Numbered from the stretch's first letter, positions 37,170 to 55,978 are shown. The stretch is 64,000 nt of DNA from a virus (IMGVR_UViG_3300037423_000611:8501-72500), one strand, 5' to 3'. Numbers and translations: made by a program. Notes: generated by a model not told the origin, from the letters alone.

Positions 37170-37330
37170 GGGGAATACCTCATTTCGATGGGGTAGAATA
37201 GAGGGGGACAATTAAAATGGTTATCCTCCTATTTGCTGTATTCTGTCGGGTCGAACTCTCCAGTTTTTCATGACGACAGATAAAAATAAAGAGGCTCACT
37301 GTTTAGCAAGCCTCTATTTCGATATATCAA

Positions 37331-37775: not shown

Positions 37776-38498
37776 TCAAACATTATTTTTATTTCTATTT
37801 TCAATCGTTTTCCGTATGTTTTCTACTCTGGCACACTCTTTGCAAAATCTTTTTTTATTGTTTGTTTGTTTAATCGCCTTATTGCAAGTTTCACATTTTG
37901 AATACCCGTCTTCGCCAACACACAACAAGTATTCGTAAATAAATTCATCGAAGTCTTTTATAATGATTGTAGGTTTGCCTTTTTTATCAGCGAACTTAAC
38001 CCACCGTTTACTTCCCATTGTTATATCAATTAATTCTTTAGAAGTTAGTGATTGCAGTAATTCTAATTTAGTCTTTGAGTTCAAATTCAACTTACACAAT
38101 CTATATAAGTCTTCGATGCTAATTTCAAATTTTTTATATCCATAAAACTTATACAATACCAATAACACAAAGGCGACCTTTTGTTCATTTAATTTCTCTA
38201 ATGATTTGATGCAATATATTTCTTTTTCTGTGATTTGAACTTCTCTTCCTGTAATCAGTTTCCCGTTATATGCAGTGTTAATTGTTTTATTGATTATTTT
38301 ATACCATTCATCTTTGTTGAAATGTTCATCAAATTTCTCACAGAATTTTACTACACATTCCTTAACTTCATCTTTAGTTTTTCCTTCGGCAAAATAATAC
38401 TTAGATAATACATATAACTCAAATACGTTCTTATGTTTGGTTAGATATCCTTTTTTCAACATCTCTTCAGCATACTTTTTCTCGTCAAATATGATCAA
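37776..38498 (-). CDS. Conserved hypothetical protein coupled to the RNAP gene, C-terminal Zn ribbon
   Basis: ATGA overlap with the RNAP stop; CETC/CKEC. Confidence 0.7.
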   Translation of the reverse strand: MIIFDEKKYAEEMLKKGYLTKHKNVFELYVLSKYYFAEGKTKDEVKECVVKFCEKFDEHFNKDEWYKIINKTINTAYNGKLITGREVQITEKEIYCIKSLEKLNEQKVAFVLLVLYKFYGYKKFEISIEDLYRLCKLNLNSKTKLELLQSLTSKELIDITMGSKRWVKFADKKGKPTIIIKDFDEFIYEYLLCVGEDGYSKCETCNKAIKQTNNKKRFCKECARVENIRKTIENRNKNNV

Positions 38499-41302
38499 AT
38501 AACAACACTCCTTAAACTGTATTTCTTCCCTAAGTACTCTTTTCCTTTGTGGTCAAACATTGGTATTTCTACTTTACCATCACTTTTATCTTTAATAATG
38601 TTCAATATCCCCTCAATGCCGATACTCCACGCAAACTCTTTAGACTCTGTTGGATTTAATTGATAAGTGATATATACTAAGTGATTTGCTAATTCTTTTG
38701 CATTAGGGCATATAGCAAATGCTTCATTCCTAATCTCCTCATAGAACTCATTCATTCTTTTGTCGCTTTCATTGTCTTCCTCAACTTCAAAATCAATATG
38801 TTTCAGAATGTTGTTTTTAAATTTAAAATGACGTTTCTTATTAAATTTCTCATACAGCTTAATTAATCTATCTAATTTAGTCTGGTCAATTTTTATAGAT
38901 TGGTCAAAAAGAACATTGAACATATCTCCAATATTTTCGTCATTCTTAGGTCTTTTATATTTAAAATCAACTTCCTCAACCATATTACAAAGTGTATTCA
39001 TAACTGAATGATTTTTAATCACTGGCATTCTTCTATAATATTCAGATACATAGTAGGACTCTTGCTTTGTCTTATTTTTCTTCTTAAGCAGTTGATCTAA
39101 AGAACACCCAAATTTTTCCTTACATGTTCTTTCACATTTCTTTTTATACTCTCTGTATTCATTTTTAATTCTATCGTAGATATAAATCATAAAGTATGGC
39201 TTTTTATTAGCAACAAGGTTGTTATGATAATATTTATTTTGTTTTACTTCATCTGAATCATCTTCGTTAATATATTCTCGATTTTTCCATTCGGAAGGAA
39301 AGGGCTTCATCTTGATACCTTTGGCCTGATCAATTGAGTCCCCGATGTATCTACGTAGGAGTTTTATTCTTTCAATCAATTCATTATACTCCTGTGAACC
39401 TTCTTTAAAATTAGAAAGCATGGATATAAACGCAGTAGAATAATTCGTTATAACTCCAACTTTACAATCAAAACTCCTTAAATCAGTTTGTAATATATTT
39501 GTATTGTTTAACCTCTGACTTGGGGCAGAAACTTTGTCGTATGTAATCACATTCTTATTAGGATATATATTATTGAGCATCACTTCATTGTCGGTAGTAA
39601 AAACAATATCATAATCCCAATCTGAATCCGAGTGTCTTATGGTGTCAACACCCCACACATTGTAGATGATGCCCGATTTTATGTATTTGTACCATTCTTT
39701 TGTGTCCTCATTGTTTATAAAATTTAAAGGATTATGTTCGTGAAAATCAACCATTGGACTTCTACAAGCATCAACTTTTGTAACATTTCTTTCATTCCAG
39801 AAATGAGAATAATGTTCATGTTCTTTTAGTAATCCAGTGACTTCGTCATTGTCATCCTTTCTAAAAGCCCATTGCGCTTGGCCATATGGATCACTTACCA
39901 TTGCTTGATAGTTTCCTCTACTCCATACGCGTCCAATTTTCGCATCTTGAATTTTTGTGGCAATATTGTCATATAACTTCTTTTTTATATATGGGTCTTT
40001 TAATAAAGAGTCGTTATACAAAATAGCCTTTACATAATCATTGTTAGATTTATCAAATATTTTAGCAATAGAATCCGATTCTTTGCATGAACCAAGTAAG
40101 AACAAGAGCGTGTACAATTTATCTCCGCTGCAAATCTTTTCTATCCAGTTGATCGTTGGTTGTATTAAATCTTTTATTTTGTGCCTGTCGAGCGCAAGAG
40201 TCTGTATATATTGGTAATTTAGTAGACTCATTTCATTATCTACTCTTGGATTTACTTTTGTAACTCCCCATGAATGTCCATGATATTCATGAAGTTGAAC
40301 ATACTGAGACCAAGATGAATAGAACTTATACATTTTAAATTGGCTTACGCTCAATAGGATGTCAATTTGGTCAATATCCCAAGTATCTCCATAATAATCA
40401 ACAATTTTGGTTGTTTTTGCTATTTTGGCAGCGTGTTTATGGAAATCGTAGACCACCAATTGTCCTTTTACAAAAGCTGAACGAATTCCAAATTGTGACG
40501 GTAAATAGTCTAAATCTAAATCTTCCTGCCATAATTCAGCCATTCTTGGAGATATTAAACCTTGACCGTCCCACATGTTTGGTACAAATTCAAAATCTTC
40601 TCTCACTGTCATTCTTCTTCGATTAATCTTCTTTCCATTTTCTCCTTGCAGTTCAACGTCCTCTACCCAATCCACCGCTTTGGGTAATTTATACTTTTCA
40701 CAGTCTGCAATCAAACACACTCTCGGTGTTCTTACCTCATATGTAGCAGACATGTGAAGCCCGAAGTAGGCGTTATATTTTGCCACGTTAATTTTCTTAA
40801 TGTTTAATCCACAGTTTAGTCTTTTTTCTAATTCATCTTTAATCTCAACATTCACAAAAGATGCAGTACTTCGTCTAGATTGGCCTGAACCACTGCACAA
40901 TCTAAGAAAACGTATTCCGTTAATGCTGAATCCATTTTTGAAAATTTTCTTATAGACTTTGCGGTCATCAACTTTTACATTAATGATATCAGGAACAAAT
41001 AAAATATCATCGATCTCTTTTTGTTTTTCAGTAATGAGTGTAGCGTTTTCTTCTGTAGATTCTAATTCTTTAAACTGATTACGTTCTTTAACTAACTCGT
41101 CTAATTTACTCAAATCTACATCAGAATTCCTAATACTTCTGATTGAACGAAATACTTGATTATCTCCAATTTGAACAATTTCACCATTTAATCTTGCTTG
41201 AGCAACAGTTAAACTTTCAATGCTACACCCAGACTCATTGAGTCTAGATGTAGTTATTTTAAAAACGTAATATTGTTGTAATTTCACCATGCAATCACTC
41301 AC
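38495..41302 (-). CDS. yonO: Single-subunit two-barrel RNA polymerase, SPbeta YonO / RdRP-like family
   Basis: 935 aa; WDGQGLIS, QFGIRSAFVKG, CRSP and catalytic DxDxD (DWDYD) motifs; synteny with HU and YonK. Confidence 0.85.
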   Translation of the reverse strand: MSDCMVKLQQYYVFKITTSRLNESGCSIESLTVAQARLNGEIVQIGDNQVFRSIRSIRNSDVDLSKLDELVKERNQFKELESTEENATLITEKQKEIDDILFVPDIINVKVDDRKVYKKIFKNGFSINGIRFLRLCSGSGQSRRSTASFVNVEIKDELEKRLNCGLNIKKINVAKYNAYFGLHMSATYEVRTPRVCLIADCEKYKLPKAVDWVEDVELQGENGKKINRRRMTVREDFEFVPNMWDGQGLISPRMAELWQEDLDLDYLPSQFGIRSAFVKGQLVVYDFHKHAAKIAKTTKIVDYYGDTWDIDQIDILLSVSQFKMYKFYSSWSQYVQLHEYHGHSWGVTKVNPRVDNEMSLLNYQYIQTLALDRHKIKDLIQPTINWIEKICSGDKLYTLLFLLGSCKESDSIAKIFDKSNNDYVKAILYNDSLLKDPYIKKKLYDNIATKIQDAKIGRVWSRGNYQAMVSDPYGQAQWAFRKDDNDEVTGLLKEHEHYSHFWNERNVTKVDACRSPMVDFHEHNPLNFINNEDTKEWYKYIKSGIIYNVWGVDTIRHSDSDWDYDIVFTTDNEVMLNNIYPNKNVITYDKVSAPSQRLNNTNILQTDLRSFDCKVGVITNYSTAFISMLSNFKEGSQEYNELIERIKLLRRYIGDSIDQAKGIKMKPFPSEWKNREYINEDDSDEVKQNKYYHNNLVANKKPYFMIYIYDRIKNEYREYKKKCERTCKEKFGCSLDQLLKKKNKTKQESYYVSEYYRRMPVIKNHSVMNTLCNMVEEVDFKYKRPKNDENIGDMFNVLFDQSIKIDQTKLDRLIKLYEKFNKKRHFKFKNNILKHIDFEVEEDNESDKRMNEFYEEIRNEAFAICPNAKELANHLVYITYQLNPTESKEFAWSIGIEGILNIIKDKSDGKVEIPMFDHKGKEYLGKKYSLRSVVI

Positions 41303-42797
41303 TTTCTTTTAAGTATTTTACGTTTGTGAACCCATAAGAAGTAAAATAGTTAATTATTTCTTGATTAAAATTTTCAATGCTTATATATTTATTAAATCCA
41401 AGTGAATTAAAATAATAATGATATCTGGGTATCATAAAAATATATTTATCTACATTTTTTCTTCTTAGAAAATTCAATTCATTAATAAATACTTCTTGCA
41501 TGTAGGAATCGTTTGCTTTAAATTCTTTTAAAAATTTAAACCTTATAGCGTTGTTTATTTTTCTGTTCTTATTTGCATTAATTAGAAAAATCTCTTTATC
41601 TAAAAAATCCTTCAACAAATTAAAGAATTTATCTTTCTTTTCTTGTTTCAGTTTTTCTTCTAACACTATTTTCTTTTTGCGTCGATTAACAACATTGTCA
41701 ACTATATCTTTAATAAATGAATTAATGATATCCTTGTCTGTTAAGTCACATTCAACGCTATCTACATTTTTGTATCCAGTTGACTTTCTCCATCCCAAAC
41801 CTCCACGCTTTCCTCTAAATGGAATAGACCTTTCATATTCAACACAACAATCAATTTGATTATCTTTAATAAAAAATGTAAATTCTGTATCATGATTTGT
41901 AAAATCAATAGCACAAATATAATATTTGCCAGTTCCTTTTCTATAAACAAAATTGCACGTGATATCTTCTGCCTTAAAATAATTATTTAATTCTATTACC
42001 ACTTCCTGAGAAGATTTATTTATGTATGTGTCAAATGCTACTCTGTTTTGTTTTATATCATATAAACGTTTATCTTCGTCAATAAATGGTTGTAGTGCTT
42101 CATTGTTAAGTGTTAAAGCCTTATGTTCAGAATTTACCTCAAAATTCGTTAGGTCATATGTATAAAATTGACTCAAATACATGATCTTATATGGAAGACT
42201 GTTGCTGATAATATCTCTCCCTATATAAACTCGACCTGTTTTAGCATCTAAATATGTATCTGAATGCTGTTCTATTGTTTTATAATGCATACTATGAGTA
42301 ATATAATCTTCTTCAATATTTAAATTGTACTTTTCTAGTCCCAATATCCATATGTCCGTTATATTTGCTAATTGATACAATCTCCTTCTTTCTATAAACT
42401 CAGTAGCAATAGGAGAGCATTGAAATTCAAATACATATTTCTGCTCATCGACTTCAAAATAAATATCTGGTCTTTGTTTGGTGGAGGGGATGTATGATTC
42501 TAATTGCAGATTCTTAATTTTTCCATCTTTCTCCAACTGTTCAAGCCAATTATATAACAACATTTTACCTTTAATATGCTCTTCGGTCTCTGGCTCAGAA
42601 TATAAACCTTCACAACTCCTATTCTTTTCACTATGTCTAAAATAAGGTAGTTTAATTTCACCATGACAATATTCATATCTGCTTCCACAGTCAGGGCAAA
42701 ATAATTTCTTTTTATCTGACCATTTCTTTAATGTGTATTTGTCATATTTACCATCGAAACAATTTATTATTGTCTCTCCAATTTTTGCAGTTAGCAG
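41295..42797 (-). CDS. CoiA-like (PD-(D/E)XK) nuclease-family protein, apparent CTG start
   Basis: In-frame extension upstream of track ATG 42563 gives (M)LTAKIGE...CPDCG...PYFRH...EPETEEHIKGK; QRPDIY...FEFQCS motif. Confidence 0.75.
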   Translation of the reverse strand: MLTAKIGETIINCFDGKYDKYTLKKWSDKKKLFCPDCGSRYEYCHGEIKLPYFRHSEKNRSCEGLYSEPETEEHIKGKMLLYNWLEQLEKDGKIKNLQLESYIPSTKQRPDIYFEVDEQKYVFEFQCSPIATEFIERRRLYQLANITDIWILGLEKYNLNIEEDYITHSMHYKTIEQHSDTYLDAKTGRVYIGRDIISNSLPYKIMYLSQFYTYDLTNFEVNSEHKALTLNNEALQPFIDEDKRLYDIKQNRVAFDTYINKSSQEVVIELNNYFKAEDITCNFVYRKGTGKYYICAIDFTNHDTEFTFFIKDNQIDCCVEYERSIPFRGKRGGLGWRKSTGYKNVDSVECDLTDKDIINSFIKDIVDNVVNRRKKKIVLEEKLKQEKKDKFFNLLKDFLDKEIFLINANKNRKINNAIRFKFLKEFKANDSYMQEVFINELNFLRRKNVDKYIFMIPRYHYYFNSLGFNKYISIENFNQEIINYFTSYGFTNVKYLKESE

Positions 42798-42858
42798 ATT
42801 GTTTCCTCCTCACTATTTTTATTATTTTTTTAAATTATGTATTATTTTATTCCTATGT

Positions 42859-43050
42859 CTAATAATAAATCTTTCCAACAACGTTTCCCCTCATATCCTT
42901 AATCACTTTCTCTTCGGCCTTATCATAATAATCATAACTCGTATCCACTCTTTGCATATCCATTAATTCCAACAGTCTGCTTTCATTCCAAGAGCCATTG
43001 TATTCCTCTTCTACTCTCATTCTTGCTTGCTCATTATTCAATTTAGCCAT
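42859..43050 (-). CDS. Hypothetical protein (63 aa)
   Basis: AAGGAG RBS; near the start of the leftward operon. Confidence 0.6.
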   Translation of the reverse strand: MAKLNNEQARMRVEEEYNGSWNESRLLELMDMQRVDTSYDYYDKAEEKVIKDMRGNVVGKIYY

Positions 43051-43141
43051 ATTTCATATCTCCTTTGTTGTGTATTATTTTCAGGTATGTCAAGATCCAC
43101 TTCACGAATCCTCACCCCCTTTTGTTTAACTTTCTATACAC

Positions 43142-43172
43142 ATTATAACTGATTATTTTATATCTGTAAACA
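43142..43172 (-). promoter_or_regulatory. SigA-type promoter of the RNAP operon
   Basis: TTTACA-17-TATAAT on the minus strand; 23 bp identical to the promoter at 51793. Confidence 0.75.
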
Positions 43173-43336
43173 AGCAGTTTTAAAATGGTACAAGCATAGT
43201 AATATTTTCTTTTCTTGGACTGGCAATTTCTAGTCATTTGCCCATATAGTAAAGTATCACCAGTTAAACACTACATTGAAATTTAGAAGTGGTGTTGAAA
43301 TGGTTAAACAGTACTTATACAACAAGAGGTGATTAC

Positions 43337-44158
43337 ATGAGTGAGAACATAGCCATAGACAACGGGAGAGCATTTAATAAGATTGCTACCCAATCAAAAA
43401 CATTCTCTTACCCCTCAGTCTTAGGTGAATGGAAAGATCGTTCAGGATTTAAGGAAACAAAATTTGGTGAATATGACTTGGAGATTGAGTTCGAATCTAA
43501 ACGTTGGTTCGGAGGGACGCTCGCTTTAAACGAATCTACATTCCAATGTACTATGCACACAGAGACGAAAGACCGATTAGAGAATTTAGTCAATATCCTA
43601 ACAAGCATTCACTTAGCGACAGAAGAATCTAACATAAGAGTAATTACTTGTCAACCAATCAAAGTTCACACTGATGAGAATAAACGAATAATTAAGGAGA
43701 TGTTGTTGGGGAGTAAAACAATCACAGTAAATGGAATAACAAAAACCTTCAATATAGAAGATGTTCTAATCGCATGTGAAGGTGGGGTGGCTGCTTATTC
43801 GTTATCTTCCTATCCAAAACTTCTACGTTTGATAGATGTAGGTTCCGCAACCATCAATACAGCTACATTGAGGAATGATAAGTTTATATTGAACGAATCT
43901 TCAACTTTACCATTTGGCCTTGATACAGAAGAGGATATTGATTTAGAGAAGTTAGCAAGCAAGGTTATAAGCGAATGCTCAAAGAAGTGGAAGCCAACGA
44001 ACCATGTTGTTTTAGTTGGGGGAGGGGCAGAAAAGTTGCTTCCTTACATTCAGGATTATTTCAAGAAAACAACTCTTCATCCACATCATCAATTTGCTAA
44101 TGTTATGGGGATGTATAAAGTGGGGTGTTCACAGTGGCAAGTATCAAACGTGTCTTAG
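43337..44158 (+). CDS. parM: ParM/StbA-family actin-like partition ATPase
   Basis: Actin-fold motifs IAIDNGRAFNK, EGGVA, LIDVGSATIN, LVGGGA, FANVMG. Confidence 0.88.
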   Translation: MSENIAIDNGRAFNKIATQSKTFSYPSVLGEWKDRSGFKETKFGEYDLEIEFESKRWFGGTLALNESTFQCTMHTETKDRLENLVNILTSIHLATEESNIRVITCQPIKVHTDENKRIIKEMLLGSKTITVNGITKTFNIEDVLIACEGGVAAYSLSSYPKLLRLIDVGSATINTATLRNDKFILNESSTLPFGLDTEEDIDLEKLASKVISECSKKWKPTNHVVLVGGGAEKLLPYIQDYFKKTTLHPHHQFANVMGMYKVGCSQWQVSNVS

Positions 44159-44349
44159 TTTGCTTTAATGAAGAAAATAAGTCACAAAATGATTTATGGC
44201 AACTGTTAGTTAAAGAATTTGGTACAAATTTATCTGGTGGTGTTAAAAACGTGTTGTGGTCATACTTCAATGGATCTCTAAGCAGACCACAACAGCCACA
44301 AATTGAGATTAAACAAGAAAAATCTTCATCAATGGAAAGTGTCTTATGA
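44134..44349 (+). CDS. Small protein overlapping parM; candidate ParR-like adaptor
   Basis: GTG start, 71 aa, coupled to parM; function inferred from position only. Confidence 0.5.
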   Translation: MASIKRVLVCFNEENKSQNDLWQLLVKEFGTNLSGGVKNVLWSYFNGSLSRPQQPQIEIKQEKSSSMESVL

Positions 44350-44426
44350 TTTCTCAGATTCCCTCATCTTTTCAACGTCTCTTTGAACGTCTTTAGCTTC
44401 ATCTTTAGTAATATTAGGAACAGCCA

Positions 44427-44894
44427 TTGCAAATCCCTCCTAGAAAGGTGATTAGATTGAGTAAAGAATTGACCATTAAACTGTCTGAGGGTTTATATGA
44501 CAAGGCATTAAGTTTTGTCCACGTCTTAAATTATCTTAATGAGAATGTAGAAAGAGAAGTGACACTTGAAGAAATCATCAAGACCTCACTCCACTATTAT
44601 CTTTGCCGATTTTACGACAACCTAATCAACGAACACAAAAATGAAAAGGTCATTACTTTAGGAAATCCAGACTTACCACTTAGATTTAATCTTGAGCCAT
44701 TTATTGAAGAAAAGAATATGCAATATACTCACATTGCAAAGCAATTAGGAGTTAGTTTAGGAACCTTAAAGGGTATTATCAACAATAAGCACATGCCCTC
44801 TGTAGACATCTTTATCCGTTTGTGGGTACTCATAGGATGCCCACCACTTCATGAAATCTTATACAGGGAAAAGGAGAATGATTCAAATGACTAA
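44427..44894 (+). CDS. XRE-family HTH transcription regulator
   Basis: C-terminal YTHIAKQLGVSLGTLKGIINNKHMPSVDIFIRL. Confidence 0.75.
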   Translation: MQIPPRKVIRLSKELTIKLSEGLYDKALSFVHVLNYLNENVEREVTLEEIIKTSLHYYLCRFYDNLINEHKNEKVITLGNPDLPLRFNLEPFIEEKNMQYTHIAKQLGVSLGTLKGIINNKHMPSVDIFIRLWVLIGCPPLHEILYREKENDSND

Positions 44895-45018
44895 ACTTCA
44901 GGTGTTAAAAAGTGAACTTCAAGACAAAATGGAATATTTCCAATGGCTTGTTCAGGATATTGAGGCCACACTTAATCAAATTGAAACGCTAGAAAAAGAA
45001 GGTGAACTTCATGTTTAG
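44878..45018 (+). CDS. Small coiled-coil hypothetical protein (46 aa)
   Basis: AAGGAG RBS; MIQMTKLQVLKSELQDKMEYFQWL...; below the track length cut-off. Confidence 0.5.
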   Translation: MIQMTKLQVLKSELQDKMEYFQWLVQDIEATLNQIETLEKEGELHV

Positions 45019-45199
45019 ATATCATGACGTAGGCTTTTGGAGCATTTTTAAGCGCAGAGTGTATCTCGTAGCAACTCAAACTACCGTTAAACATGTTGAA
45101 GCAAGCGCATTAGACCGCTACATTAAACGTAGTGAGGATGCTTGGAGATGGACAATTCAATATACAATGTATAGATACTTTAAGAAACAAGGGATGTAG
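45011..45199 (+). CDS. Hypothetical protein
   Basis: GAAGGTGA RBS; overlaps the previous ORF stop. Confidence 0.5.
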   Translation: MFRYHDVGFWSIFKRRVYLVATQTTVKHVEASALDRYIKRSEDAWRWTIQYTMYRYFKKQGM

Positions 45200-45200
45200 G

Positions 45201-45705
45201 GTGCGAGTATTTTTAAATGATAAAGTGAAGGAATTGGTTATTACAAGTGGTTTTCATTCAGTAGATACGGTTCACAAAACACCGCACACTGGAATTGATA
45301 TTCAAATGAACATGAATACCCCCATATTAAGTCCGGTCAAAGGTTACGTATCAGAAGTATTCAATTACGGTAGTCAAAATGCAGGGCTTGGTCTTAAAGT
45401 TAAAATGGAAAACGGGTCAGAATTGATTTTCGGTCATATGTCATTCGTTTCCCAAAAGGTGGGTGATGCTATTAGTGTAGGTGAGCAACTTGGCCTAAGT
45501 GGAAATACAGGTTGCTCTACTGCACCCCACTAGTCACTTACATGTAGGTTTAAAAGTAAATGGATCTTTTGCAGACCCCTCATATTACGTAGACTTGATG
45601 CAACAGGTATACTACAACTACTCCCACCACATCACTCAATTCGCTTCAGATAATTCCCATCTATATAACGCTGTTCACAGTATCATTCAAGCATTTACAA
45701 ATTAA
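45201..45705 (+). pseudogene. M23-family peptidoglycan peptidase disrupted by a 7-bp insertion in the HxH motif
   Basis: HTGID and GNTG.ST.PH motifs, then TAG. Removing 45531-45537 restores ...TAPHLHVGLKVNGSFADP (165 aa). Confidence 0.8.
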
Positions 45706-45917
45706 TCTTTAATCACATCATATTCTTTCAGTACACTTATAATTTCATCCAATTTATCTACATTTTTAATACCTAACTTATCCATAATTTCAAATCTATA
45801 TTTATCAAGATTTTTTTCCCAATCTTTCATATACAGTTGCCACATGTGCATGATTATCACCTCAAGTTTAGTATAACCGTTTTAAAAGTAAAAATACATG
45901 AGAGAAGGTTGTTAATA

Positions 45918-46067
45918 ATGACAGGTTTTGAAGGTCTATTGCTTACTACAATGAAGATTTGTGCAGGTTTTGCGATTATATTTGGAGTCCGTATTGCTGC
46001 TAATTTCTACTTTGGTGACGCAGATAAAGGAGGTAAAGGCAATGAATTCAAGCGTCTTGGTCGCTAA
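45918..46067 (+). CDS. Small membrane protein (49 aa)
   Basis: MTGFEGLLLTTMKICAGFAIIFGVRIAANFYFG; hydrophobic. Confidence 0.5.
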   Translation: MTGFEGLLLTTMKICAGFAIIFGVRIAANFYFGDADKGGKGNEFKRLGR

Positions 46068-46641
46068 CATCAAAGCAAGAAAAAGCGAGGCTACTGTTAA
46101 AACTGAAAGTAAAACAATCACTATTGACCATAGAAAGCAATTCGTTCCTGTGAAAGAGACTGTAAATTTTCCTTTGGAGATAGAAAAGGTGGTGAGAAAG
46201 AATCTCCAAAACAAACTATTCTCACTACCCATTGTAACAGTCACGGGGTTAGCATCCGTATTGGTAGCAGAGCCAACATTAGCACAGGAAGTAATGGGAG
46301 CAGCGCAAGCAACAGCAGACCCACTCATGTCAGGAGAGTTAGTAAAGTTCTTCATCAAGTCTGCATTATGGATGGACGTAGTAGCGTTAGGGGTGTCAAT
46401 AGCATCATCTCCAGTAATAGGGTTCGTGAGTATATTCAACGCAAATACAGCAAAAGAATGGACTCACAATCTGTTAAAAGGGATGGGAATTACGCTGTTC
46501 CTACAAATGTTATTAATAGGTCTCATTTATCTAGGTCATTTGCTGTTTGGGGAAAATCCATATTACATCGACCCTTGGGCTATCTTAGCACCATGTATCA
46601 AACCTGCTATTCTAGAAGTAGTAAGATCCTTCAAGTCATAG
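46042..46641 (+). CDS. Multi-TM membrane protein, possibly VirB2/pilin-like
   Basis: GGAGG RBS; hydrophobic segments, AxA-like site (TLAQE) and two further TM helices; family assignment is inference. Confidence 0.5.
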   Translation: MNSSVLVANIKARKSEATVKTESKTITIDHRKQFVPVKETVNFPLEIEKVVRKNLQNKLFSLPIVTVTGLASVLVAEPTLAQEVMGAAQATADPLMSGELVKFFIKSALWMDVVALGVSIASSPVIGFVSIFNANTAKEWTHNLLKGMGITLFLQMLLIGLIYLGHLLFGENPYYIDPWAILAPCIKPAILEVVRSFKS

Positions 46642-47801
46642 GGCTTTCAACGTTTGGATTTGGTTTATTCCCACAATTCGCTTTCGCAGAAGGCAACAAT
46701 CCTTCATTTTGGGATAAAGCAAGTACTTTTTTCGAGTATATGGGGAAGTTCTTTGCATGGTGCGATAAAGCACTAGATTGGATATATAACCTACCTCAAC
46801 ATATCTTAAACGGTTCTATACAATTTCTAGGATGGTTATATGAAATAATTGCTGATTTCATGTTGGGCGTTCCATCTGAGTTATTCACTAGTAATTGGTT
46901 TACAACAGCTTCAATTGTGTTTGGACTCATAGGTTGTTTATTCTCTATAGCATTGGGTAGTTATGAAGGATTACGACACGCAATCTTTCCCTTAAATAGA
47001 AGTCAAAGTAGTACATTTACAGACTGGAAAACATTATTTAAACGAATCCCCATAGCGACTATTGGAGCCGGATTTGCGCCTAAAGCATTCGAGATAGTAT
47101 TTACCTACTTAGATAAATTCACATCTGCTTTAATTCACGCAGGAAAGGATCAAATTGTTACTGCTGCTACCCATGCTAATATTGTTGGATTTGGTTGGTT
47201 CGATGCAATTGCACTTGTATTATTTGATATAGCCTTTGTTGTAAAAATGTACCCATTATTCATGCAATTGGCCTCTAGATATTTTAACCTCCTAGCACTT
47301 GGAGCATTAACGCCTTTAGCGTTAGGCTGTTGGGTGTATGATGAGCATCGAGGTTGGTTTGATGAATGGCTAGATTCCCTTAAGAAGATTATCTTCTCTA
47401 TGATTTGGTACGCACTATTCCTTACCGCAATGGGTGTCCTGATTGTCGGTATAGGTGGAACCACAACATTTAAAGGATTATTTATTAAGTTGCTAATCAT
47501 CATTGGCTGTGTAATTACAATGACAAATCCACCACATATCTTAAAAAGATACATTAACAATGGTGAAGATGTATCAGATATGATTAAAAAATTCAAAGAT
47601 GTAGTAATGATGGAGAATATTAAGAGAAGCAGTGGAGCAAAAGGAGTTAAATTCATAAAAGGTTATTACTCAAAAGAGGCGATTAATGAGCGCAAAGATA
47701 ATAGAAAGCAGAAAATAGAGGCAACCACCAAGAAACAAAAGAAGACAATTCTAAATGGTTATGTATTCTGGCATCTGCTTAAGAACAAATTTAAGAAGTA
47801 A
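46593..47801 (+). CDS. TrbL/VirB6-like polytopic membrane protein (start uncertain)
   Basis: Multiple TM segments; RYFNLLALGALTPLALGCW...WFDEWLDSLKKIIF resembles the VirB6 core. Confidence 0.6.
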   Translation: MYQTCYSRSSKILQVIGLSTFGFGLFPQFAFAEGNNPSFWDKASTFFEYMGKFFAWCDKALDWIYNLPQHILNGSIQFLGWLYEIIADFMLGVPSELFTSNWFTTASIVFGLIGCLFSIALGSYEGLRHAIFPLNRSQSSTFTDWKTLFKRIPIATIGAGFAPKAFEIVFTYLDKFTSALIHAGKDQIVTAATHANIVGFGWFDAIALVLFDIAFVVKMYPLFMQLASRYFNLLALGALTPLALGCWVYDEHRGWFDEWLDSLKKIIFSMIWYALFLTAMGVLIVGIGGTTTFKGLFIKLLIIIGCVITMTNPPHILKRYINNGEDVSDMIKKFKDVVMMENIKRSSGAKGVKFIKGYYSKEAINERKDNRKQKIEATTKKQKKTILNGYVFWHLLKNKFKK

Positions 47802-47813
47802 AGGAGATTAATT

Positions 47814-47918
47814 ATGAAAGAAGTTCTAATCATTAACACCATCATGATTGCAGTAAACACATTGGTTATCTTCATAGCAAGTAAAATTATTGAGGGGAGA
47901 AATAGACATGATTATTAA
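47814..47918 (+). CDS. Small single-TM peptide (34 aa)
   Basis: AAGGAG RBS; MKEVLIINTIMIAVNTLVIFIASKIIEGRNRHDY; overlaps the ftsK-like start. Confidence 0.5.
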   Translation: MKEVLIINTIMIAVNTLVIFIASKIIEGRNRHDY

Positions 47919-50247
47919 TCTAAATAAATTACGTCAATCATTCACGAGTACAATCCAAAATAAAATTAAAGAGAGTACGCTATTATCTAAAACTTTTTCC
48001 CTTCAAGAAACTCGTACATTCACACTAAGTAATCCATCATCTGTAAAATCCTTTCTTGCCAGAAGGCAGGAGGGGATTTTCGGATTTGAATATTACAATT
48101 CACTTGGTACAATCAAAAATCATTTCTTCACCACCGACCAATCTCACATCTCTTTACCTTCTACTACGCCAGTAATCTTAGACCACACAAGAGAAGATAT
48201 AGAATGTTACTATATGACATTCAGAAATCATTCGTTTGCTCCATTTATCTTTAACTATCAACATAACTTTTGGGAAACTCTCACCAAATATTTAAAGGGT
48301 TCTACTGAAAAAGGGAGCGTCTACTTGCAATTAATATTTAGCCCCTTCCAATCAGATAAATGGAAGGATGAACTGTGTGACATGTATGATGCTTATTTAG
48401 ATGGGATTAATCAACCATCAACCAATCAAATGTTACTCAAATGGCAATATAAACTACATGATGTACTAAAAGGTAGAAGGAATGCACCAATTCGAGAAGT
48501 ATCACAAAAGGTCGATCAGTATGGTTATAGCACATGCGTCAGGCTTATTATTCAAGGAAGCGAGGGTGATAGGAGACGCATAAAGGAACGTATTAAATTA
48601 GCATTGAGCAATCTTAATTATGTAAATGGATTAAACTTTGCTTTAGTTAAAAATCATCAGCAATTCTTGGAGAACATGCAGATACGTAACTTTAACAAGA
48701 AATACTCACATCAAATCATGTGCAGTAGTGAAATGATTGGATTCTTTGGTGGTATGAGTGAAAATGAGTCTGAAGAGATGAAACAAGTGTTAATGCCTAA
48801 ACCGAAGATTCCGATTGAAGAAATAATGAATGATATTGAAATACTGCCAAGTGTAAATCAACAGTCATTTAATGAAGACGACAAAGAACTAATTGACGAG
48901 TTGACTGCTGCAATGCTCAGACTAAATCTGCTTAAGAATGCAAAAGACATGACTGTTTTAGAAGTTAAAGAAGGTCCAACACTTAAATTTATTGAATTTT
49001 TAAGACCTGATTATCTCTATCTACAAAACGCAAATAGAAGGCTTGCTGATTTGAGGATTGAAATGAATGAACCTAATTTGAATCTTACTGGAGGAAACAA
49101 CAAGGGAACTTTCTGTATCAGTTACCCAAGATTAAAAAGAGAGTATATAGACTTAGCAAAAATTCTAGAAAGTATTGAGTTTAAAAGAAAATGTGATGAG
49201 TACGAATTGCCAATATGTGTGGGTACTGACATGAATGGTGAATATAAATTTTATGACTTCGTAGACCTTGTTCATATGTTGATTGCAGGTGCTACTGGCA
49301 ATGGTAAGTCGGTCTTCGTCACTGCATTGTTATTAATGCTCACAGAGGCAAGAAGTCCAGAAGAATTAGAATTGCATTTAATTGATATGAAACGAGTAGA
49401 GTTAACGGACTTCAGAAATTTCCCCCATGTTAAAAAAGTAGCTACAGATGCACGAAAAGCATTCATGATATTGGCTAATTTAGTTAAGGAAATGGATCAA
49501 CGTTATATGCAACTTGAAGCAGAAGGATTAAAAGGAATTAAATATCATAATAGAAGATTCCCCGATAATAAGTGGTCATATAAACTTTGTGTTATAGATG
49601 AATTTGCAGATTTAATGCTTAATAAAGACTTTAAAAAGGAAATTGAGGATATGGTTCAACGGCTAAACCAACTTGGTAGAGCATCAGGCATTCACGTTAT
49701 ATTAGCCACTCAACGTCCTTCTGTGGATGTTGTAACAGGAATAATAAAGGCCAATATGCCTGCCAGAGTTGGGTTTGCATGTGAAGCGAATGTAGATTAT
49801 AGGACTATCTTTGATAAGATTCCTAATTTTAATCTAATAGGTAATGGAGATGGTGCAATCAAATGGCATGGAAATAAAGAATTATTTGTCCGATTCCAAA
49901 GTCCAATTAATTATGATGAAGAGATATACGAAAGGATTATTAATAAATGGGGTAGCAAGGGTAATCAATTGCAAATTGAAGAGGAACTTGATGATAAACT
50001 ATACGAAGAAGATACTGACGAAAAGTTTTTGCTATTGAAGAAAGTTATTTGCGAAACTGGGGAAACTCGAATCAAACAACTCAGGGAAATGACAAAATTA
50101 AATCAAAATAAGATTCAAGAATATTTTCAGCAACTAGTTGAAGAAGGTTGGCTAGAAAAAGGAAACTCTAGACAGAGTGGATATAAACTTAAACTTACCG
50201 ACATAGAAAGAGAGATATTTTTAGATAGCCTTACAGATAACGAGTAG
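47908..50247 (+). CDS. FtsK/SpoIIIE-family DNA translocase
   Basis: Walker A HMLIAGATGNGKS, Walker B VIDEFADL, GRASGIHVILATQRP, C-terminal winged-helix-like domain. Confidence 0.92.
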   Translation: MIINLNKLRQSFTSTIQNKIKESTLLSKTFSLQETRTFTLSNPSSVKSFLARRQEGIFGFEYYNSLGTIKNHFFTTDQSHISLPSTTPVILDHTREDIECYYMTFRNHSFAPFIFNYQHNFWETLTKYLKGSTEKGSVYLQLIFSPFQSDKWKDELCDMYDAYLDGINQPSTNQMLLKWQYKLHDVLKGRRNAPIREVSQKVDQYGYSTCVRLIIQGSEGDRRRIKERIKLALSNLNYVNGLNFALVKNHQQFLENMQIRNFNKKYSHQIMCSSEMIGFFGGMSENESEEMKQVLMPKPKIPIEEIMNDIEILPSVNQQSFNEDDKELIDELTAAMLRLNLLKNAKDMTVLEVKEGPTLKFIEFLRPDYLYLQNANRRLADLRIEMNEPNLNLTGGNNKGTFCISYPRLKREYIDLAKILESIEFKRKCDEYELPICVGTDMNGEYKFYDFVDLVHMLIAGATGNGKSVFVTALLLMLTEARSPEELELHLIDMKRVELTDFRNFPHVKKVATDARKAFMILANLVKEMDQRYMQLEAEGLKGIKYHNRRFPDNKWSYKLCVIDEFADLMLNKDFKKEIEDMVQRLNQLGRASGIHVILATQRPSVDVVTGIIKANMPARVGFACEANVDYRTIFDKIPNFNLIGNGDGAIKWHGNKELFVRFQSPINYDEEIYERIINKWGSKGNQLQIEEELDDKLYEEDTDEKFLLLKKVICETGETRIKQLREMTKLNQNKIQEYFQQLVEEGWLEKGNSRQSGYKLKLTDIEREIFLDSLTDNE

Positions 50248-50276
50248 GGGAGAATGTTCGGATTCTCTCCTTTTTA
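50246..50276 (+). terminator. Rho-independent terminator after ftsK-like gene
   Basis: ggggagaat...attctctcc followed by ttttt. Confidence 0.65.
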
Positions 50277-50640
50277 TCATATGACCAAAAACTTAACATA
50301 GGTAAATACGGTAGTATGGTCAATTGGTCATTTGATATTCGCATGGTCATTTGAAGTATTTGATAATTTGATTACGAACATTCACTCACGTACACCATTC
50401 CATTGTTCGACCTCTCAGAATCAATTCTGAGACCGCTAGAAAGCCCATAGACGAGTTTAAATCTGTTCCGAGTGTAATTGCAACCCCCTACGATAAACCA
50501 TCTATAATCGCTTTATTTCATTATATTAGTTTTATAACATTTATTTTTACTTTTGTATTGACTTTACCATATCCTACCACTATAATGAAATTAAATAAGT
50601 AACCTAATAAATCAAAGGTTACAAATAAGGAGGAGTTAAC

Positions 50641-52639: not shown

Positions 52640-54486
52640 AAATCATGCTCGACACAAAATCATATACACATAAGCCTGAATCAGAAATTGGCATTGTCAC
52701 AAAAAGAATCATGCAATACCCAGTTGATATTACTCCTCAGCAACTAACACAAGAGATATTAAAAGGTAAAAGTTTTATACCTGCTTATATAGGAACTCCA
52801 AATAGCAAAGGTGTAGTAAAAAAGTCTAATGAGTGTTGGACATATCAAGAATTATTATGTTTAGATTTTGATGAAGGAATGATGTTAAAAGAAGCATTAG
52901 AAGAATTTAATAATACAGCTATGTTTATTTATACAACATTCAATCATAGTGTTAAACAAGATAAATTTAGAGTTGTATTTCAATTAGATAAGAAATTAAC
53001 GAATTATAAAGACTTTAGTGATATCATTACCTATTTAATTGATAAGTATAAAGCAGATATACAATGTAAAGATGGATCTAGATTATACTTTGGTGGTAAG
53101 GAAGTATATGAATTAAATTATAATAATAAATTAAATGTTGATGAATTATTAATTGTTAGTAGAGAGTATGTTAGTAACAAAAGTAAAAATAACAATAAAA
53201 ATAAAAATGTGAGAAAAAGTACCCATCATATATTAGATATGGGTAGTAAATATCTATCTAATATACAAAGGGTACTAAAATCCCACCATGAGAAATTAAC
53301 AAGAAATAGAACGACTGAAGCAAAGGAAATAACCAATAAGTTAGATTTAATGGGATATTTATTATCTAGAGACTTATATACATATCTTAATATTGAAGAT
53401 GGATTAACTCCATTCTGTTGTATATTTCATGACGATAAGAAGCCATCAGCTAGTATTATCAAGAATCAAAAGGGATTCCAAATATACAAGTGTCATAGTT
53501 CTAAGTGTGGATTTACAGGTAATATATTTAGAATCACCGAGAGATTATTTGAGTTAAATAATGTAGAGGCCATTGATTATTTGTGTGATGTGTTTAATGT
53601 ACAATTGGTTGAATCTGAATGGTATCAAAAACAAAAGAGGATTTATGAACAGAATATTTACTATCTGCTAAGTGGGGCAATGGAATATGAACATGAGTAT
53701 CTATATAAGGTGATTAAGAGACATATACCATTGCTGGTGATATTGAATCAAATTGCCATCATGACTATGGGTTCTGAAATGATTAAGCGAAACGAGGAGC
53801 CAATATTCTTTAAGCCTATGAAGGAAATTATGAATATGTTTGCTGCTTTTGTTGCTGAAATTAAAGAGATTGAGGAAAAAGATAAGAAGTTTACAAGAGA
53901 TTTGAAGGAACTAAATAAGCGAATCAATCTATTTGCTTTATTGGGTGTAGTGAATAAGTTACATATATCTGATGTGCCTACAGACATTTATAAGAGATAT
54001 ACAGCACTACAAAAGCAAGTGACTGGAGATGAGAAATTAAAGATCCCAAACTTTTATTATATCCCATCCTACTCAGATCAAGTGCTAACTAGCGCTAATC
54101 AATTAGCTGACCAGTTCAAACAAACTATGAGCATGAAAGGATTCTCCAGAGAAATGATTATGAGGGCTATGGGAGAAGATGCTGCGAATAGAGTTTTCCC
54201 TATGAAGAAAGGTAAAGAGTTAACTAAGACGAGTGATAAACTGGCCTTAGAGATGAAAGATTTAGTGCTGAGTCTATTGGATGATAAGGGATATGTAATT
54301 GAGAAAGAGATATTTGATTATACATATGGAAGCAAAGAGAAAAATTTGAGGGTACTGAAAAGATGCTTACAAGAAATGTTAGACGAATATGGATTGAAGA
54401 GAGTAAGGTTGAATAAAGAATTGAAAAATGGATTGGGTATAGTAGTGGAAGGATATCCAAATGTAATATTAAGAGATAGTGAGTAG
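52636..54486 (+). CDS. Replication initiator / primase-like protein with CHC2-type zinc finger
   Basis: LCLDFD...YTTFNH...KFRVVF...D.QCKDGSRLYFG (AEP/VirE-N-like); CCIFHDDKKPSA...YKCHSSKCG; origin-like region immediately downstream. Confidence 0.7.
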   Translation: MKIMLDTKSYTHKPESEIGIVTKRIMQYPVDITPQQLTQEILKGKSFIPAYIGTPNSKGVVKKSNECWTYQELLCLDFDEGMMLKEALEEFNNTAMFIYTTFNHSVKQDKFRVVFQLDKKLTNYKDFSDIITYLIDKYKADIQCKDGSRLYFGGKEVYELNYNNKLNVDELLIVSREYVSNKSKNNNKNKNVRKSTHHILDMGSKYLSNIQRVLKSHHEKLTRNRTTEAKEITNKLDLMGYLLSRDLYTYLNIEDGLTPFCCIFHDDKKPSASIIKNQKGFQIYKCHSSKCGFTGNIFRITERLFELNNVEAIDYLCDVFNVQLVESEWYQKQKRIYEQNIYYLLSGAMEYEHEYLYKVIKRHIPLLVILNQIAIMTMGSEMIKRNEEPIFFKPMKEIMNMFAAFVAEIKEIEEKDKKFTRDLKELNKRINLFALLGVVNKLHISDVPTDIYKRYTALQKQVTGDEKLKIPNFYYIPSYSDQVLTSANQLADQFKQTMSMKGFSREMIMRAMGEDAANRVFPMKKGKELTKTSDKLALEMKDLVLSLLDDKGYVIEKEIFDYTYGSKEKNLRVLKRCLQEMLDEYGLKRVRLNKELKNGLGIVVEGYPNVILRDSE

Positions 54487-54515
54487 ATCATCTGAAAAGG
54501 TGGTCTATTTTTTAT
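54484..54515 (+). terminator. Terminator after rep
   Basis: tagatcatct gaaa aggtggtcta tttttt. Confidence 0.65.
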
Positions 54516-55372
54516 GTGTGTAAATTTATATGTCGGTATATAGTATCGAGAGTGTATTTGAAATGGATCTAAAATATGCCCCCGTGGTAGGTTGAGCGTA
54601 GATTGGATAAGGGATTGAGATGTATTTTTGATGTGAGAATGTGAATGAGTGATGAAAGTGTAAAATCGATTGTGTGATGGAATGTGAGTGTGAATCGAGT
54701 AGAGTGTAGAGAATATGTGGATTCTAATACAATTTAGAGTGGAAATTAGGGTAATTTGGATTAGGGTAGGGTAGTTGGAAGAGTAATAGTGAGGAGTGGC
54801 GAGAGCGTGTTATAGAGGGATTGAGACGATATATGCTGCGATGGTGAACGCGATATGGGAATAGTAAGTGAGGGTGATAGGGAGAGAGTATGATAGGGAT
54901 ATGTAAACTTTGTGGTGAATGTGAGTTTACATATAGATGGAAATTAATGGATAGTTGGTAGGGTGATCTAGTGTAGAAGATAGGACGGAAATGTGAAGAT
55001 TAGATGAAGGGAAAGTCTAAAATTTAGGCTGAGTGTGGAAATGGAAGTGTTGCGAGGATATTTGTCGAATAATGTCGAATTTTGGATGTAAACCACGCCC
55101 CCACCCTTGATATATAAGGATTATTCAAACTCCATCTAATAGCAATGTAACCCAATGTTATTTATGTTACCTACATTCATACCTACATTTGCACGATACA
55201 GACCAACCAAAAAGCCCAGTCTGTAATATGCGTGTATAATACAACAATTGTAGATTGCATGGGAACGAATGTTACATATTTTCCTATGATATCATCCATC
55301 ATTCACGGCTCGTAATTGGTCTGACCAATATCGAAGAATAACATGGAAACCGCATATGAAGACTTCACATAC

Positions 55373-55407
55373 TTATCCACAGTTAATTGTGTATATCTTG
55401 TTGATAA
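55373..55407. promoter_or_regulatory. DnaA-box cluster
   Basis: Perfect TTATCCACA (55373-55381) plus two inverted 1-mismatch boxes TGTGTATAT (55388-55396) and TGTTGATAA (55399-55407). Confidence 0.65.
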
Positions 55408-55411
55408 TATT

Positions 55412-55427
55412 TGTTTCACGTGGAACG
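55412..55427. promoter_or_regulatory. parS: Host-type parS (Spo0J/ParB binding site)
   Basis: TGTTTCACGTGGAACG; its reverse complement CGTTCCACGTGAAACA differs from the consensus TGTTNCACGTGAAACA at one position. Confidence 0.75.
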
Positions 55428-55732
55428 TTTTATAATTATTTTACATTCATATTATCTATTCTATCTGCAATCCTATCCATAATTATATATAAGTTTTACT
55501 TATCATCACATCATTATTAATAAGTTTATATTATTATCATCTTATTATCATATTATCCTATTCCATTTCCCATTATATCTCTCCAATGATCTAATTATTA
55601 TCAGTTTTACACACTCGCATTTATACAAATAAAATAAACACGAACAATATTTTTCTTTACATTTACTCACTATAGGTTTATAATTATAAGCGTAGATAGT
55701 TAATACATATTAATTCTTAGGAGGTTATTATA

Positions 55733-55978
55733 ATGCTAAAGTTAAAAGAGCAATTCGAAGTATACGCCAATTACTACAATGTAGAAACCGATAGTGTAGA
55801 CTCTAATAGGGAATTCGAAGTACTTTCAAATATGCTCGATTCATTCTTAGATTACGAAGAATTCTCTCCATTGTTTGATATTCTTTGCACACTAAACAAT
55901 GATAAGAAAATAAACATAAAAGAAAATTGGAATAAATTTTCTCTAGCATTAATTCAAAGTATCACTAATACACTTTAG
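55733..55978 (+). CDS. Hypothetical early protein
   Basis: Promoter-like TTTACA...TATAAT and AGGAGG RBS. Confidence 0.65.
   Translation: MLKLKEQFEVYANYYNVETDSVDSNREFEVLSNMLDSFLDYEEFSPLFDILCTLNNDKKINIKENWNKFSLALIQSITNTL

Follow-up and report, generated by a model that had tools for sequence, protein, structure and literature searches.

Which task could a DNA pump of the FtsK type fulfil in a phage that encodes it together with an actin-like ATPase, a pilin-like protein and a relative of the channel protein VirB6? The question is raised by a gene block at positions 43337-50247 of the viral sequence IMGVR_UViG_3300037423_000611:8501-72500. This stretch of 64,000 nucleotides, here called the window, comprises bases 8501-72500 of a 72.5-kb viral contig from IMG/VR, which according to CheckV covers ~45% of a phage genome; all coordinates are window positions unless another record is named. 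The block is a single co-oriented unit on the + strand closed by a terminator, and the genes that a preliminary description had listed as a compact operon resembling a DNA transfer module were all recovered, with their coordinates and orientation. We consider the chances about even that the block encodes a stripped-down membrane machine, derived from a type IV secretion system (T4SS), which moves double-stranded DNA (dsDNA), most likely at the septum of a spore-forming host.

The motor, its membrane partners and their conservation

The core of the block consists of the following elements:

45918-46067, + strand: small protein of 49 aa with one N-terminal transmembrane (TM) helix and a basic tail
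46042-46641, + strand: VirB2/TrbC-like pilin precursor, 199 aa, placed in a 16-sequence alignment
46134-47801, + strand: open reading frame (ORF) in the -1 frame, stop-free from 46134, leading into the VirB6-like protein
46593 (start call, an ATG without Shine-Dalgarno (SD) sequence) to 47801, + strand: VirB6/TrbL-like protein (PF19597 TrbL_4, E 1.3e-5, 24.6 bits)
47908-50247, + strand: soluble FtsK-like ATPase, 779 aa (PF01580, E 7e-37), comprising a domain resembling the VirB4 N-terminal domain (NTD; aa 27-282), an FtsK alpha domain (aa 322-412), an FtsK/SpoIIIE motor and a winged-helix-like end (~aa 700-770)

The ATPase gene starts with an ATG at 47908 preceded by the SD sequence GAGGGGAG. 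Its product matches phrog_3551 over residues 51-772 (E 1e-131) and carries the Walker A motif GATGNGKS and the Walker B motif VIDEFADL. No TM segment was found in the ATPase and no hydrophobic stretch in residues 1-440, hence it has no multi-TM septal anchor. In the PDB comparison the motor was far closer to FtsK (2ius, E 1e-46) than to TcpA, the coupling protein of pCW3 (6o1w, E 4e-16), and the match to EssC/EccC was weaker as well (E 1e-20 to 1e-11). Among the NCBIfam models FtsK scored 161 bits versus 33.8 bits for TraB (NF041214, cut-off 800). Judged from these scores, the motor is a true dsDNA translocase of the FtsK/SpoIIIE type and not a coupling protein of the TcpA/ConQ/VirD4 type, and the analogy to TcpA and ConQ drawn in the preliminary description had to be given up. 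Pfam gave no FtsK_gamma match in the ATPase, PDB searches with the C-terminal 105 aa yielded weak MarR-type matches only, and PADLOC returned generic ATPase-domain matches only.

An AlphaFold2 (AF2) model of aa 1-440 was built from a 10-sequence alignment (predicted local distance difference test, pLDDT, 70). Residues 27-282 of this model matched TrwK/VirB4 (7o42_A) first of 48,161 chains, with Z 14.5 and a root mean square deviation (rmsd) of 3.1 Å over 216 residues, and the next structural match reached Z 8.3; the FtsK alpha domain was found with Z 11.8. Foldseek independently returned six TrwK chains (E 5e-4 to 6e-3, probability 0.95-1.0). The modelled N-domain is a soluble alpha/beta domain that folds like the N-terminal domain of VirB4. 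Within the R388 machine it is this VirB4 domain that holds the ATPase to VirB3 and the inner-membrane complex beneath VirB6. Thus the seemingly missing VirB4 may be present in the form of a docking domain on a dsDNA pump. According to this, the earlier statement that VirB4 is lacking holds for the VirB4 ATPase domain (PF12846 AAA_10, PF03135 CagE_TrbE_VirB), which gave no match on the 72.5-kb, ~45% complete contig, but not for the VirB4-NTD fold, which the FtsK-like protein carries. In the complete phages Phrodo and SIOphi and a complete 215-kb IMG/VR phage no VirB4 was found either, and only the P-loop of the FtsK-like gene matched.

The VirB6-like protein lies just below the PF19597 cut-off of 27 bits and matches phrog_3750 (E 8e-57); its conserved body extends from ~46710 to 47560. 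TrbL_4 is matched by 5 of the 52 family members (best E 6.7e-9) and is the only family that recurs. With an AF2 model (pLDDT 81) the top six Foldseek matches in the PDB were all TrwI/VirB6 of plasmid R388 (probability ~1, E ~0.05), and VIA-align gave TrwI/VirB6 with Z 9.9, 9.0 and 8.8 over 226-235 residues, compared to Z 7.0 for the best unrelated fold. Because these moderate Z values combine with the sequence signal, we accept that the protein is related to VirB6/TrbL. The family is small and narrow, as an exhaustive HMMER search yielded just 118 relatives among 1.84 billion cluster representatives.

The proteins of the pilin-like family share a cytoplasmic N-terminal part, a lysine-rich stretch, a leader TM segment ending in A-x-A (TLA|QE in the window) and two TM helices with a short conserved loop between them. 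This is the build of VirB2/TrbC propilins, of which the window copy appears to be a divergent member. PF04956 (TrbC/VirB2) is matched by 3 of the 16 family members (best E 3.3e-7), the Niallia homologue was labelled 'TrbC/VirB2 family protein' by PGAP, a lead in the ESM Atlas pointed to T4SS_pilin (0.84), and the window protein matches phrog_3528 (E 8e-5). No solved pilin was matched when the family profile was compared with the PDB. The small TM protein is a possible VirB3 analogue. In 13 of 16 loci the pilin-like gene is immediately preceded by a counterpart of 39-69 aa (loci L015 and L016 yielded none, and phage 0305phi8-36 was left out of this count). T4SS homology of the membrane proteins, named beforehand as a point on which the reading as a transfer module could fail, is present in the form of TrbL_4 matches, TrwI folds, PF04956 matches and pilin topology.

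Conservation as a unit was the second such point. We read 16 loci that had sufficient flanking sequence, namely the Bastillevirinae Phrodo and SIOphi, phage 0305phi8-36, 8 IMG/VR contigs (including two SPbeta-like proviruses and the 215-kb phage), 2 metagenomic contigs and 3 plasmids. The order pilin-like, VirB6-like, FtsK-like is kept in all 16, across four kinds of element, and the block is therefore not a chance juxtaposition. A sister contig (L029) holds the same 7-kb block at 57-65% protein identity. Further genes are accessory: a helix-turn-helix (HTH) gene lies upstream in 8 of the 16 loci, an M23 peptidase gene in about 5 and a ParM-type gene in 7. By tblastn the VirB6-like protein was detected in 160 phage records, 158 of them Bacillus phages, and 138 phage records cover at least 80% of the ATPase.

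The 12 plasmid matches all belong to Bacillus or Niallia save one that is labelled Arthrobacter citreus (strain NEB 577, CP053689.1). On this plasmid a gene for an alpha/beta-type small acid-soluble spore protein is located 0.5 kb, or two small genes, downstream of the FtsK-like gene. Because of this spore-protein gene near the cassette the organism label or the real host is doubtful, and the plasmid probably belongs to a spore-former. The cassette also occurs on Bacillus megaplasmids typed as non-mobilizable by MOB-suite. A Niallia sp. plasmid (NZ_CP137637.1), likewise typed non-mobilizable, carries at 59.9-72.5 kb a full conjugation locus of the Tcp/ICEBs1 type besides the FtsK cassette. This separate T4SS, 30 kb from the cassette, has its own coupling protein, VirB4, VirB6-like protein, hydrolase and relaxase; since it is complete, the cassette is not a stray piece of a canonical T4SS. 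On pBFR_2 (NZ_CP009606.1), also typed non-mobilizable, a strong but split AAA_10 VirB4 gene was observed at 140-144 kb besides the cassette.

A comparison with the inner-membrane complex of the R388 T4SS (TrwK/VirB4, TrwM/VirB3, TrwI/VirB6, TrwL/VirB2; PDB 7o3v, 7o42, 8rtd) revealed the same set of a polytopic protein with VirB6 fold, a VirB2-type topology, a VirB4 N-domain fold and a small TM protein at the place expected for VirB3. Unlike this complex, the block has an FtsK alpha/beta motor and lacks a VirB4-type ATPase domain, VirB5, VirB7-VirB11, VirD4 and a relaxase, and sequence similarity to the R388 parts is at or under the Pfam thresholds. The preliminary description had seen no recognisable relaxase, and in agreement with it no Replic_Relax relaxase (PF13814) was matched on the contig, other relaxase families not having been searched individually. 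PF13814 was also without match in Phrodo, SIOphi, the 215-kb phage and the two SPbeta-like proviruses.

The gene set as such is not new. Using informatics, Pathria et al. (2012; PMC3357382) recognised in phage 0305phi8-36 a 'DNA translocation operon' consisting of orf200 (HTH and MobC-like relaxase), orf201 (translocase), orf203 (VirB6 homologue) and orf207 (MreB-like), together with a partial version in SPO1 (gp27.x). The orf200-207 region is collinear with the window: an actin-like ParM/MreB protein, a small partner, the pilin-like ORF204, the VirB6-like ORF203, a tiny ORF and the ATPase ORF201. In addition, 0305phi8-36 has ORF200, an HTH protein with a weak Replic_Relax-like match (PF13814, E 6e-5), which is lacking on the window contig. 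The MobC/Replic_Relax-type relaxase seems to be peculiar to 0305phi8-36; being absent from this contig and five other carriers, it is not part of the conserved core. The window in turn has an XRE-type HTH gene, a broken M23 gene and the setting of an SPbeta-like temperate phage. By its matches to PHROGs 3551, 3750 and 3528 the block is a further member of the kind already described. The pilin-like gene, the VirB4-NTD fold of the motor and the frame overlap went unrecognised by Pathria et al. (2012; PMC3357382), and we found none of the three in print elsewhere.

An open -1 frame across the pilin gene

Gene callers truncate or mis-start the VirB6-like gene because it overlaps the pilin gene in the -1 frame. 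Within the -1 ORF of the window the first ATG, GTG or TTG lies at 46368, with none in the first 234 nt. All 16 loci have the VirB6-like frame at -1 to that of the pilin, and the stop-free overlap over the pilin gene measures 396-508 nt, whereas the +1 frame is open for just 6-63 nt. For 13 loci the overlap was compared with synonymous-codon shuffles that preserve the pilin protein and its codon usage (2000 shuffles per locus). The overlap of 508 nt in the window contrasts with a median of 6 nt in the shuffles, none of which (0/2000) reached 508 nt; across the 13 loci the median open run was 6-99 nt, and the observed length was reached in 0-0.85% of the shuffles (P ≤0.0085, mostly <5e-4). An artefact of composition, by which T at position 2 of TM codons would forbid -1 stops, is refuted by these shuffles as the cause of the overlap.

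The open -1 frame begins in most loci with 190-350 nt devoid of ATG, GTG and TTG (only 45-70 nt in SIOphi and pBFR_2), and candidate starts of the VirB6-like gene near the pilin stop have no good SD sequence. These features suggest that translation of the VirB6-like protein probably begins in the pilin gene and passes into the -1 frame by recoding, which would be the most economical reading of the overlap. A candidate site was found near the 5' end of the open frame:

46164-46170, + strand: candidate -1 recoding site A-AAT-TTT, followed by the SD-like sequence AAGGTGGTG at 46186-46194

The -1 frame of the window opens 31 nt before this site, and in the other loci it opens at, or up to ~40 nt upstream of, an invariant Phe codon. 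This codon is TTT and is preceded by a codon ending in T (T-TTT, or NNT TTT) in all 16 loci, and a perfect SD-like AAGGAGGTG follows 15-19 nt past the TTT in 13 of 15 loci. Phage 0305phi8-36 shares both the -1 overlap and the AAT-TTT site with the window. Where exactly the ribosome slips and what the SD-like element does can only be speculated on; the element might, for instance, stall a leading ribosome and thereby place the trailing one on T-TTT. The minor product of such recoding would start with the first ~40 residues of the pilin, continue with a hydrophilic linker and end with the VirB6-like body, and synthesis of the channel protein would be held at a low, constant fraction of pilin synthesis. 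If true, the conserved overlap represents a new case of recoding outside tail-chaperone and dnaX genes.

Cargo, destination and competing explanations

Three genes upstream of the core enter into the proposed function:

43337-44158, + strand: ParM/actin-like protein (ALP) ATPase, 273 aa (PF17989 ALP_N, E 5.9e-16; 59 bits, cut-off 26)
44125-44349, + strand: ParR-like candidate of 74 aa with a pattern of ribbon-helix-helix (RHH) type, overlapping the parM end by 34 nt
45132-45705 (pieces 45132-45533 and 45499-45705), + strand: broken gene of an M23 (LytM-type) metallopeptidase (PF01551, E 5.8e-16, first piece)

The ParM protein matches phrog_691 (partition protein, E 3e-44), and its gene is located 1.9 kb upstream of the cassette core. 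ParM-type genes also accompany the cassette in the loci L010, L012, L014 and L029, in Phrodo and in 0305phi8-36. An actin-like ATPase gene followed by a gene for a small RHH-like candidate adaptor resembles the ParMRC systems of R1 and pSK41 and Alp7A/AlfA of Bacillus plasmids. In contrast to ParMRC, no parC-like iteron array was found around parM (42500-45200). The pair also occurs with the cassette in lytic phages such as the strictly lytic Bastillevirinae, so plasmid-type inheritance is not implied. For the 74-aa protein neither Pfam nor NCBIfam gave a match. It has positional counterparts after ParM in the sister contig, in 0305phi8-36 (ORF206), in Phrodo (213) and in SIOphi (630), and these small proteins share the pattern K/R-x-V/I-L..F ... 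L-V-R/K-D/E..G-K-Y. The ParR-like proteins of window and sister contig (L029, 6138-6353) are 94% identical, while the other cassette proteins of this pair reach only the 57-65% given above; this points to very strong constraint or recent exchange.

The M23 hydrolase of the preliminary description is represented by a gene, but this gene is frameshifted at its catalytic motif. Both pieces match phrog_7767. The lesion is one extra C (+1 frameshift) in a CCCC run at 45524-45527, right at the HxH motif, which leaves HxxxD in the first frame and HLH in the second, and in tblastn alignments with intact homologues the frame changed precisely at the G-x-HLHF motif. The actual start codon probably lies near 45204-45210. 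The sister contig has a single intact M23 gene of 164 aa. Contigs from 4 soil/rhizosphere runs carry an M23 sequence identical to that of the window, without indel; as four samples agree, the lesion is real in the phage lineage and not an assembly slip of one sample.

From gene content, folds, synteny and frame conservation we infer assembly, cargo, direction and destination of the machine as follows. A hexameric soluble motor would dock below the membrane through its VirB4-like N-domain. The docking platform would be formed by the VirB6-like channel protein, the VirB2-like pilin and the one-TM protein and would mirror the position of VirB4 under VirB3/VirB6 in R388. The C-terminal winged helix of the motor may select the DNA of the element itself. 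With no relaxase and a motor belonging to the FtsK class of dsDNA pumps, the machine most likely carries duplex DNA of the phage itself. Positioning of this DNA at the pole or septum, by pushing or holding, would fall to ParM and its small partner, and the M23 peptidase, where intact, would thin or open the septal peptidoglycan. The machine could then place the phage genome in the neighbouring compartment across the septum. The first choice for this compartment is the forespore, leading to virospore formation or spore inheritance, and the second is the sister cell in a chain. In its most specific form, in which a hybrid motor on a VirB2/VirB6 platform, with a channel subunit made only by -1 frameshifting, cooperates with an actin-like filament to load the genome across a cross-wall or the sporulation septum, the proposal is doubtful and is put forward tentatively.

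Several observations are consistent with a role at the septum or in spores. Only elements of spore-formers carry the cassette. Bc431v3, a Bastille-like phage, has its FtsK-like and ParM-like genes close to phage homologues of sigF and sigG (PMC3601020), and lytic phage genomes trapped in spores (virospores) have been documented (PMC12991052). In the genome papers on Bc431v3 (PMC3601020) and Grass, the FtsK/SpoIIIE and ParM genes are noted as curiosities whose role is not known. Deletion of the operon in 0305phi8-36 caused no growth defect in the laboratory (PMC3357382), and such a missing phenotype fits a role that is needed only in the wild.

A self-encoded DNA pump, if it exists, would offer a direct mechanism for the genomes of lytic and temperate Bacillus phages, which can travel in spores, and would be the missing mechanism behind virospores. 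To our knowledge, the entry of a phage genome into spores is explained mechanistically only for phi29, via host Spo0J/parS. DNA translocation without relaxase and without VirB4 ATPase would then have descended from type IV secretion, VirB2, VirB6 and the VirB4 docking domain would be able to work with an FtsK motor in the absence of a relaxase, and the block would link conjugative T4SS with Streptomyces TraB and SpoIIIE. The carriers comprise about 140-160 sequenced Bacillus phages, SPbeta-like prophages and megaplasmids of the B. cereus group. Even if the destination is wrong, the block is well defined, nonessential in the laboratory and present in tractable B. subtilis phages.

A number of points weigh against this proposal. 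DNA transport, membrane association or a spore phenotype has been demonstrated experimentally in no member. In 12 loci the 300 nt preceding the small TM gene contained no match to strict sigF, sigG, sigE or sigK consensus patterns, and the intergenic stretches of the window contain no sporulation-sigma consensus but loose -10-like strings only. The host SpoIIIE pumps any DNA caught in the sporulation septum, and because this pump already exists the need for a phage pump is unclear. As to the single proteins, the window's own pilin-like protein has no direct Pfam match, so that its VirB2/TrbC membership is derived via the family; for a helical protein, Z 9.9 at an rmsd of ~6 Å is a moderate match to the VirB6 fold; and the C-terminal winged helix is backed by weak matches (TrmB E 0.029, MarR E 0.15). 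Frameshifting is deduced from sequence statistics alone: an X-XXY-YYZ heptamer is not universal (about 9 of 16 loci), and no consistent RNA stem-loop was found downstream of T-TTT (mean z -1.0). With the contig at ~45% completeness, this phage may encode further partners. Finally, with its M23 gene frameshifted, the block as found here may be in partial decay.

Two other explanations appear unlikely, both to the same degree. The first is a virion-independent transfer of dsDNA into an attached neighbouring cell through the T4SS-derived channel, with help of the wall peptidase. Streptomyces TraB provides a precedent, as this single FtsK-type ATPase transfers dsDNA without relaxase. Apart from TraB, the pilin-like and VirB6-like parts, the peptidoglycan hydrolase gene, the VirB4-NTD fold on the ATPase and the presence of the cassette on Bacillus megaplasmids typed non-mobilizable argue for such a transfer, and Pathria et al. 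(PMC3357382) read the operon as a mobilisation operon. The likeness to the TraB/clt/Spd system is an analogy only: both would move duplex DNA without relaxase by a single FtsK-family ATPase with C-terminal winged helix, and both would act together with small membrane proteins at septal cross-walls. TraB, however, has its own membrane segment, Spd is unrelated to VirB2/VirB6, the hosts are Actinomycetes, and the match of our motor to the TraB model is far below the cut-off (34 versus 800 bits). Moreover, no adhesin, scaffold of the VirB8 or VirB10 type or surface component was seen in the block, and the MobC-type relaxase of 0305phi8-36 is absent from the contig and five other carriers. The M23 gene is optional (about 5/16 loci) and broken here, strictly lytic phages would gain little from cell-to-cell transfer, and the Niallia plasmid already has a full T4SS.

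The second unlikely explanation is an intracellular housekeeping role for a large replicon, that is, clearing of the septum in the manner of SftA or resolution of multimers, with segregation by ParM and tethering of the motor by the membrane proteins. SftA of B. subtilis is a soluble FtsK-type translocase. With FtsK, SpoIIIE and SftA our protein shares the alpha and beta motor and a probable DNA-binding winged helix at the C-terminus, and like SftA it is soluble. It differs from these proteins by the lack of a 4-TM anchor, by the VirB4-NTD-like domain and separate membrane partners, and by being encoded on phages and plasmids instead of the chromosome. The ParM gene with its RHH-like partner upstream, the occurrence of the cassette on low-copy megaplasmids and a tyrosine recombinase gene 400 nt downstream, past a cluster of ATGGTCAWTTG repeats, would also suit such a role. 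This recombinase is nevertheless a homologue of yopP of the SPbeta backbone with its own transcription unit, and it does not lie beside the cassette in Bastillevirinae and plasmids. Tethering needs neither T4SS-type pilin and VirB6 homologues nor a VirB4-type docking domain, and lytic phages have no need for stable segregation.

We regard it as less likely still that the cassette acts on the envelope, on incoming DNA or on protein, be it in superinfection or conjugation exclusion or in the export of protein or a pilin-like fibre. VirB4 is thought to act on pilin and not on DNA, and the FtsK-family proteins EssC/EccC, which match the ATPase as given above, drive protein secretion. The block also occupies an accessory region of SPbeta that is home to exclusion and lysogeny-control genes (yopH, arbitrium genes). 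Nevertheless, PADLOC gave nothing beyond the generic ATPase domain, the motor with its alpha domain and likely DNA-binding end is much nearer to DNA-pumping FtsK than to EssC, and the partners EssA, EssB and WXG of the type VII secretion system are absent. That the block is a decaying, functionless remnant in this phage is improbable: the M23 frameshift shared by 4 samples and the 0305phi8-36 operon deletion without laboratory phenotype (PMC3357382) would fit decay, but no other gene is damaged, the ATPase has both Walker motifs, no stop codon has entered the 508-nt -1 overlap, the 7-kb block persists in the sister contig (57-65% protein identity) and the M23 gene is an optional accessory in other loci.

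Remaining genes of the block and genomic surroundings

Further features were assigned within the block and at its end:

44427-44894, + strand: XRE-type HTH protein, 155 aa, with C-terminal HTH_3 (PF01381, E 2.7e-5) and an N-terminal half of unknown type
44851-45199, + strand: two small ORFs of 55 aa and 65 aa from the ORF list, no family match
45702-45860, - strand: antisense ORF of 52 aa between the M23 gene and the small TM gene, no family match
50246-50271, + strand: hairpin resembling an intrinsic terminator, a 10-bp stem followed by a T run, which closes the block

Homologues of the HTH protein lie directly upstream of the cassette in the 8 loci counted above, plasmids among them, and BLASTP detected no similarity between the window protein and ORF200 or ORF208 of 0305phi8-36. 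Genes of 43 and 59 aa were called in the sister contig where the window has the two small ORFs. The antisense ORF has minus-strand counterparts, 53-67 aa long, at the equivalent place in Phrodo (gene 214), SIOphi (3880-4041) and the sister contig; the idea that the 52-aa ORF encodes a Spo0E-like phosphatase was rejected for lack of Pfam support.

The next gene, encoding the tyrosine recombinase, has its own strong promoter at 50558-50586. Between the cassette terminator and this promoter, three direct copies of ATGGTCAWTTG (50316, 50324, 50343) and an inverted ATGACCA near 50282 are found within 70 nt (50282-50353). The motif is not enriched in the window as a whole (9 matches versus 4.7 expected). 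From its sequence the cluster is a candidate protein-binding site and could serve as a recombination site, an operator or a recognition site of the winged helix.

To the left of the block, the minus strand up to 42563 encodes a YonO-type RNA polymerase, a PhoH-like protein, the terminase and long tail genes. The statement that the block is divergent from the virion genes was therefore roughly right. Features on this side are:

17257-18579, - strand: HNH/homing-endonuclease-like gene, 440 aa (phrog_9084, phrog_559), within the virion gene block
27627-29501, - strand: terminase with 68% identity to SPbeta YonF
35883-37211, - strand: PhoH-like ATPase on the left side, beside the divergent region
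38495-41302, - strand: homologue of the YonO-type single-subunit RNA polymerase (phrog_8308); the copy of the sister contig matches PF05183

The arrangement of the YonO-type polymerase and the PhoH-like gene left of the divergent region is as in SPbeta. The + strand block occupies the place of the variable yonR-yopO region of SPbeta and is followed downstream by the homologue of the backbone recombinase yopP (E 3.9e-31). Since terminase, polymerase, yopP homologue and gene layout are as in SPbeta, the contig is by its gene content a fragment of an SPbeta-like temperate soil phage of a low-GC, Bacillaceae-type host. The plasmid lifestyle of a prophage-plasmid, as assumed in the preliminary description, finds no support in this setting. 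Near-identical contigs were present in 4 different soil/rhizosphere studies, and megablast against the phage and plasmid collections found no near-identical record.

A scan of the window with Rfam gave no RNA family. Downstream of a primase-like gene of 616 aa (phrog_25531), a stretch of 1.25 kb (54486-55733) is free of ORFs of at least 60 aa on either strand; it could contain a replication origin or an unidentified RNA.

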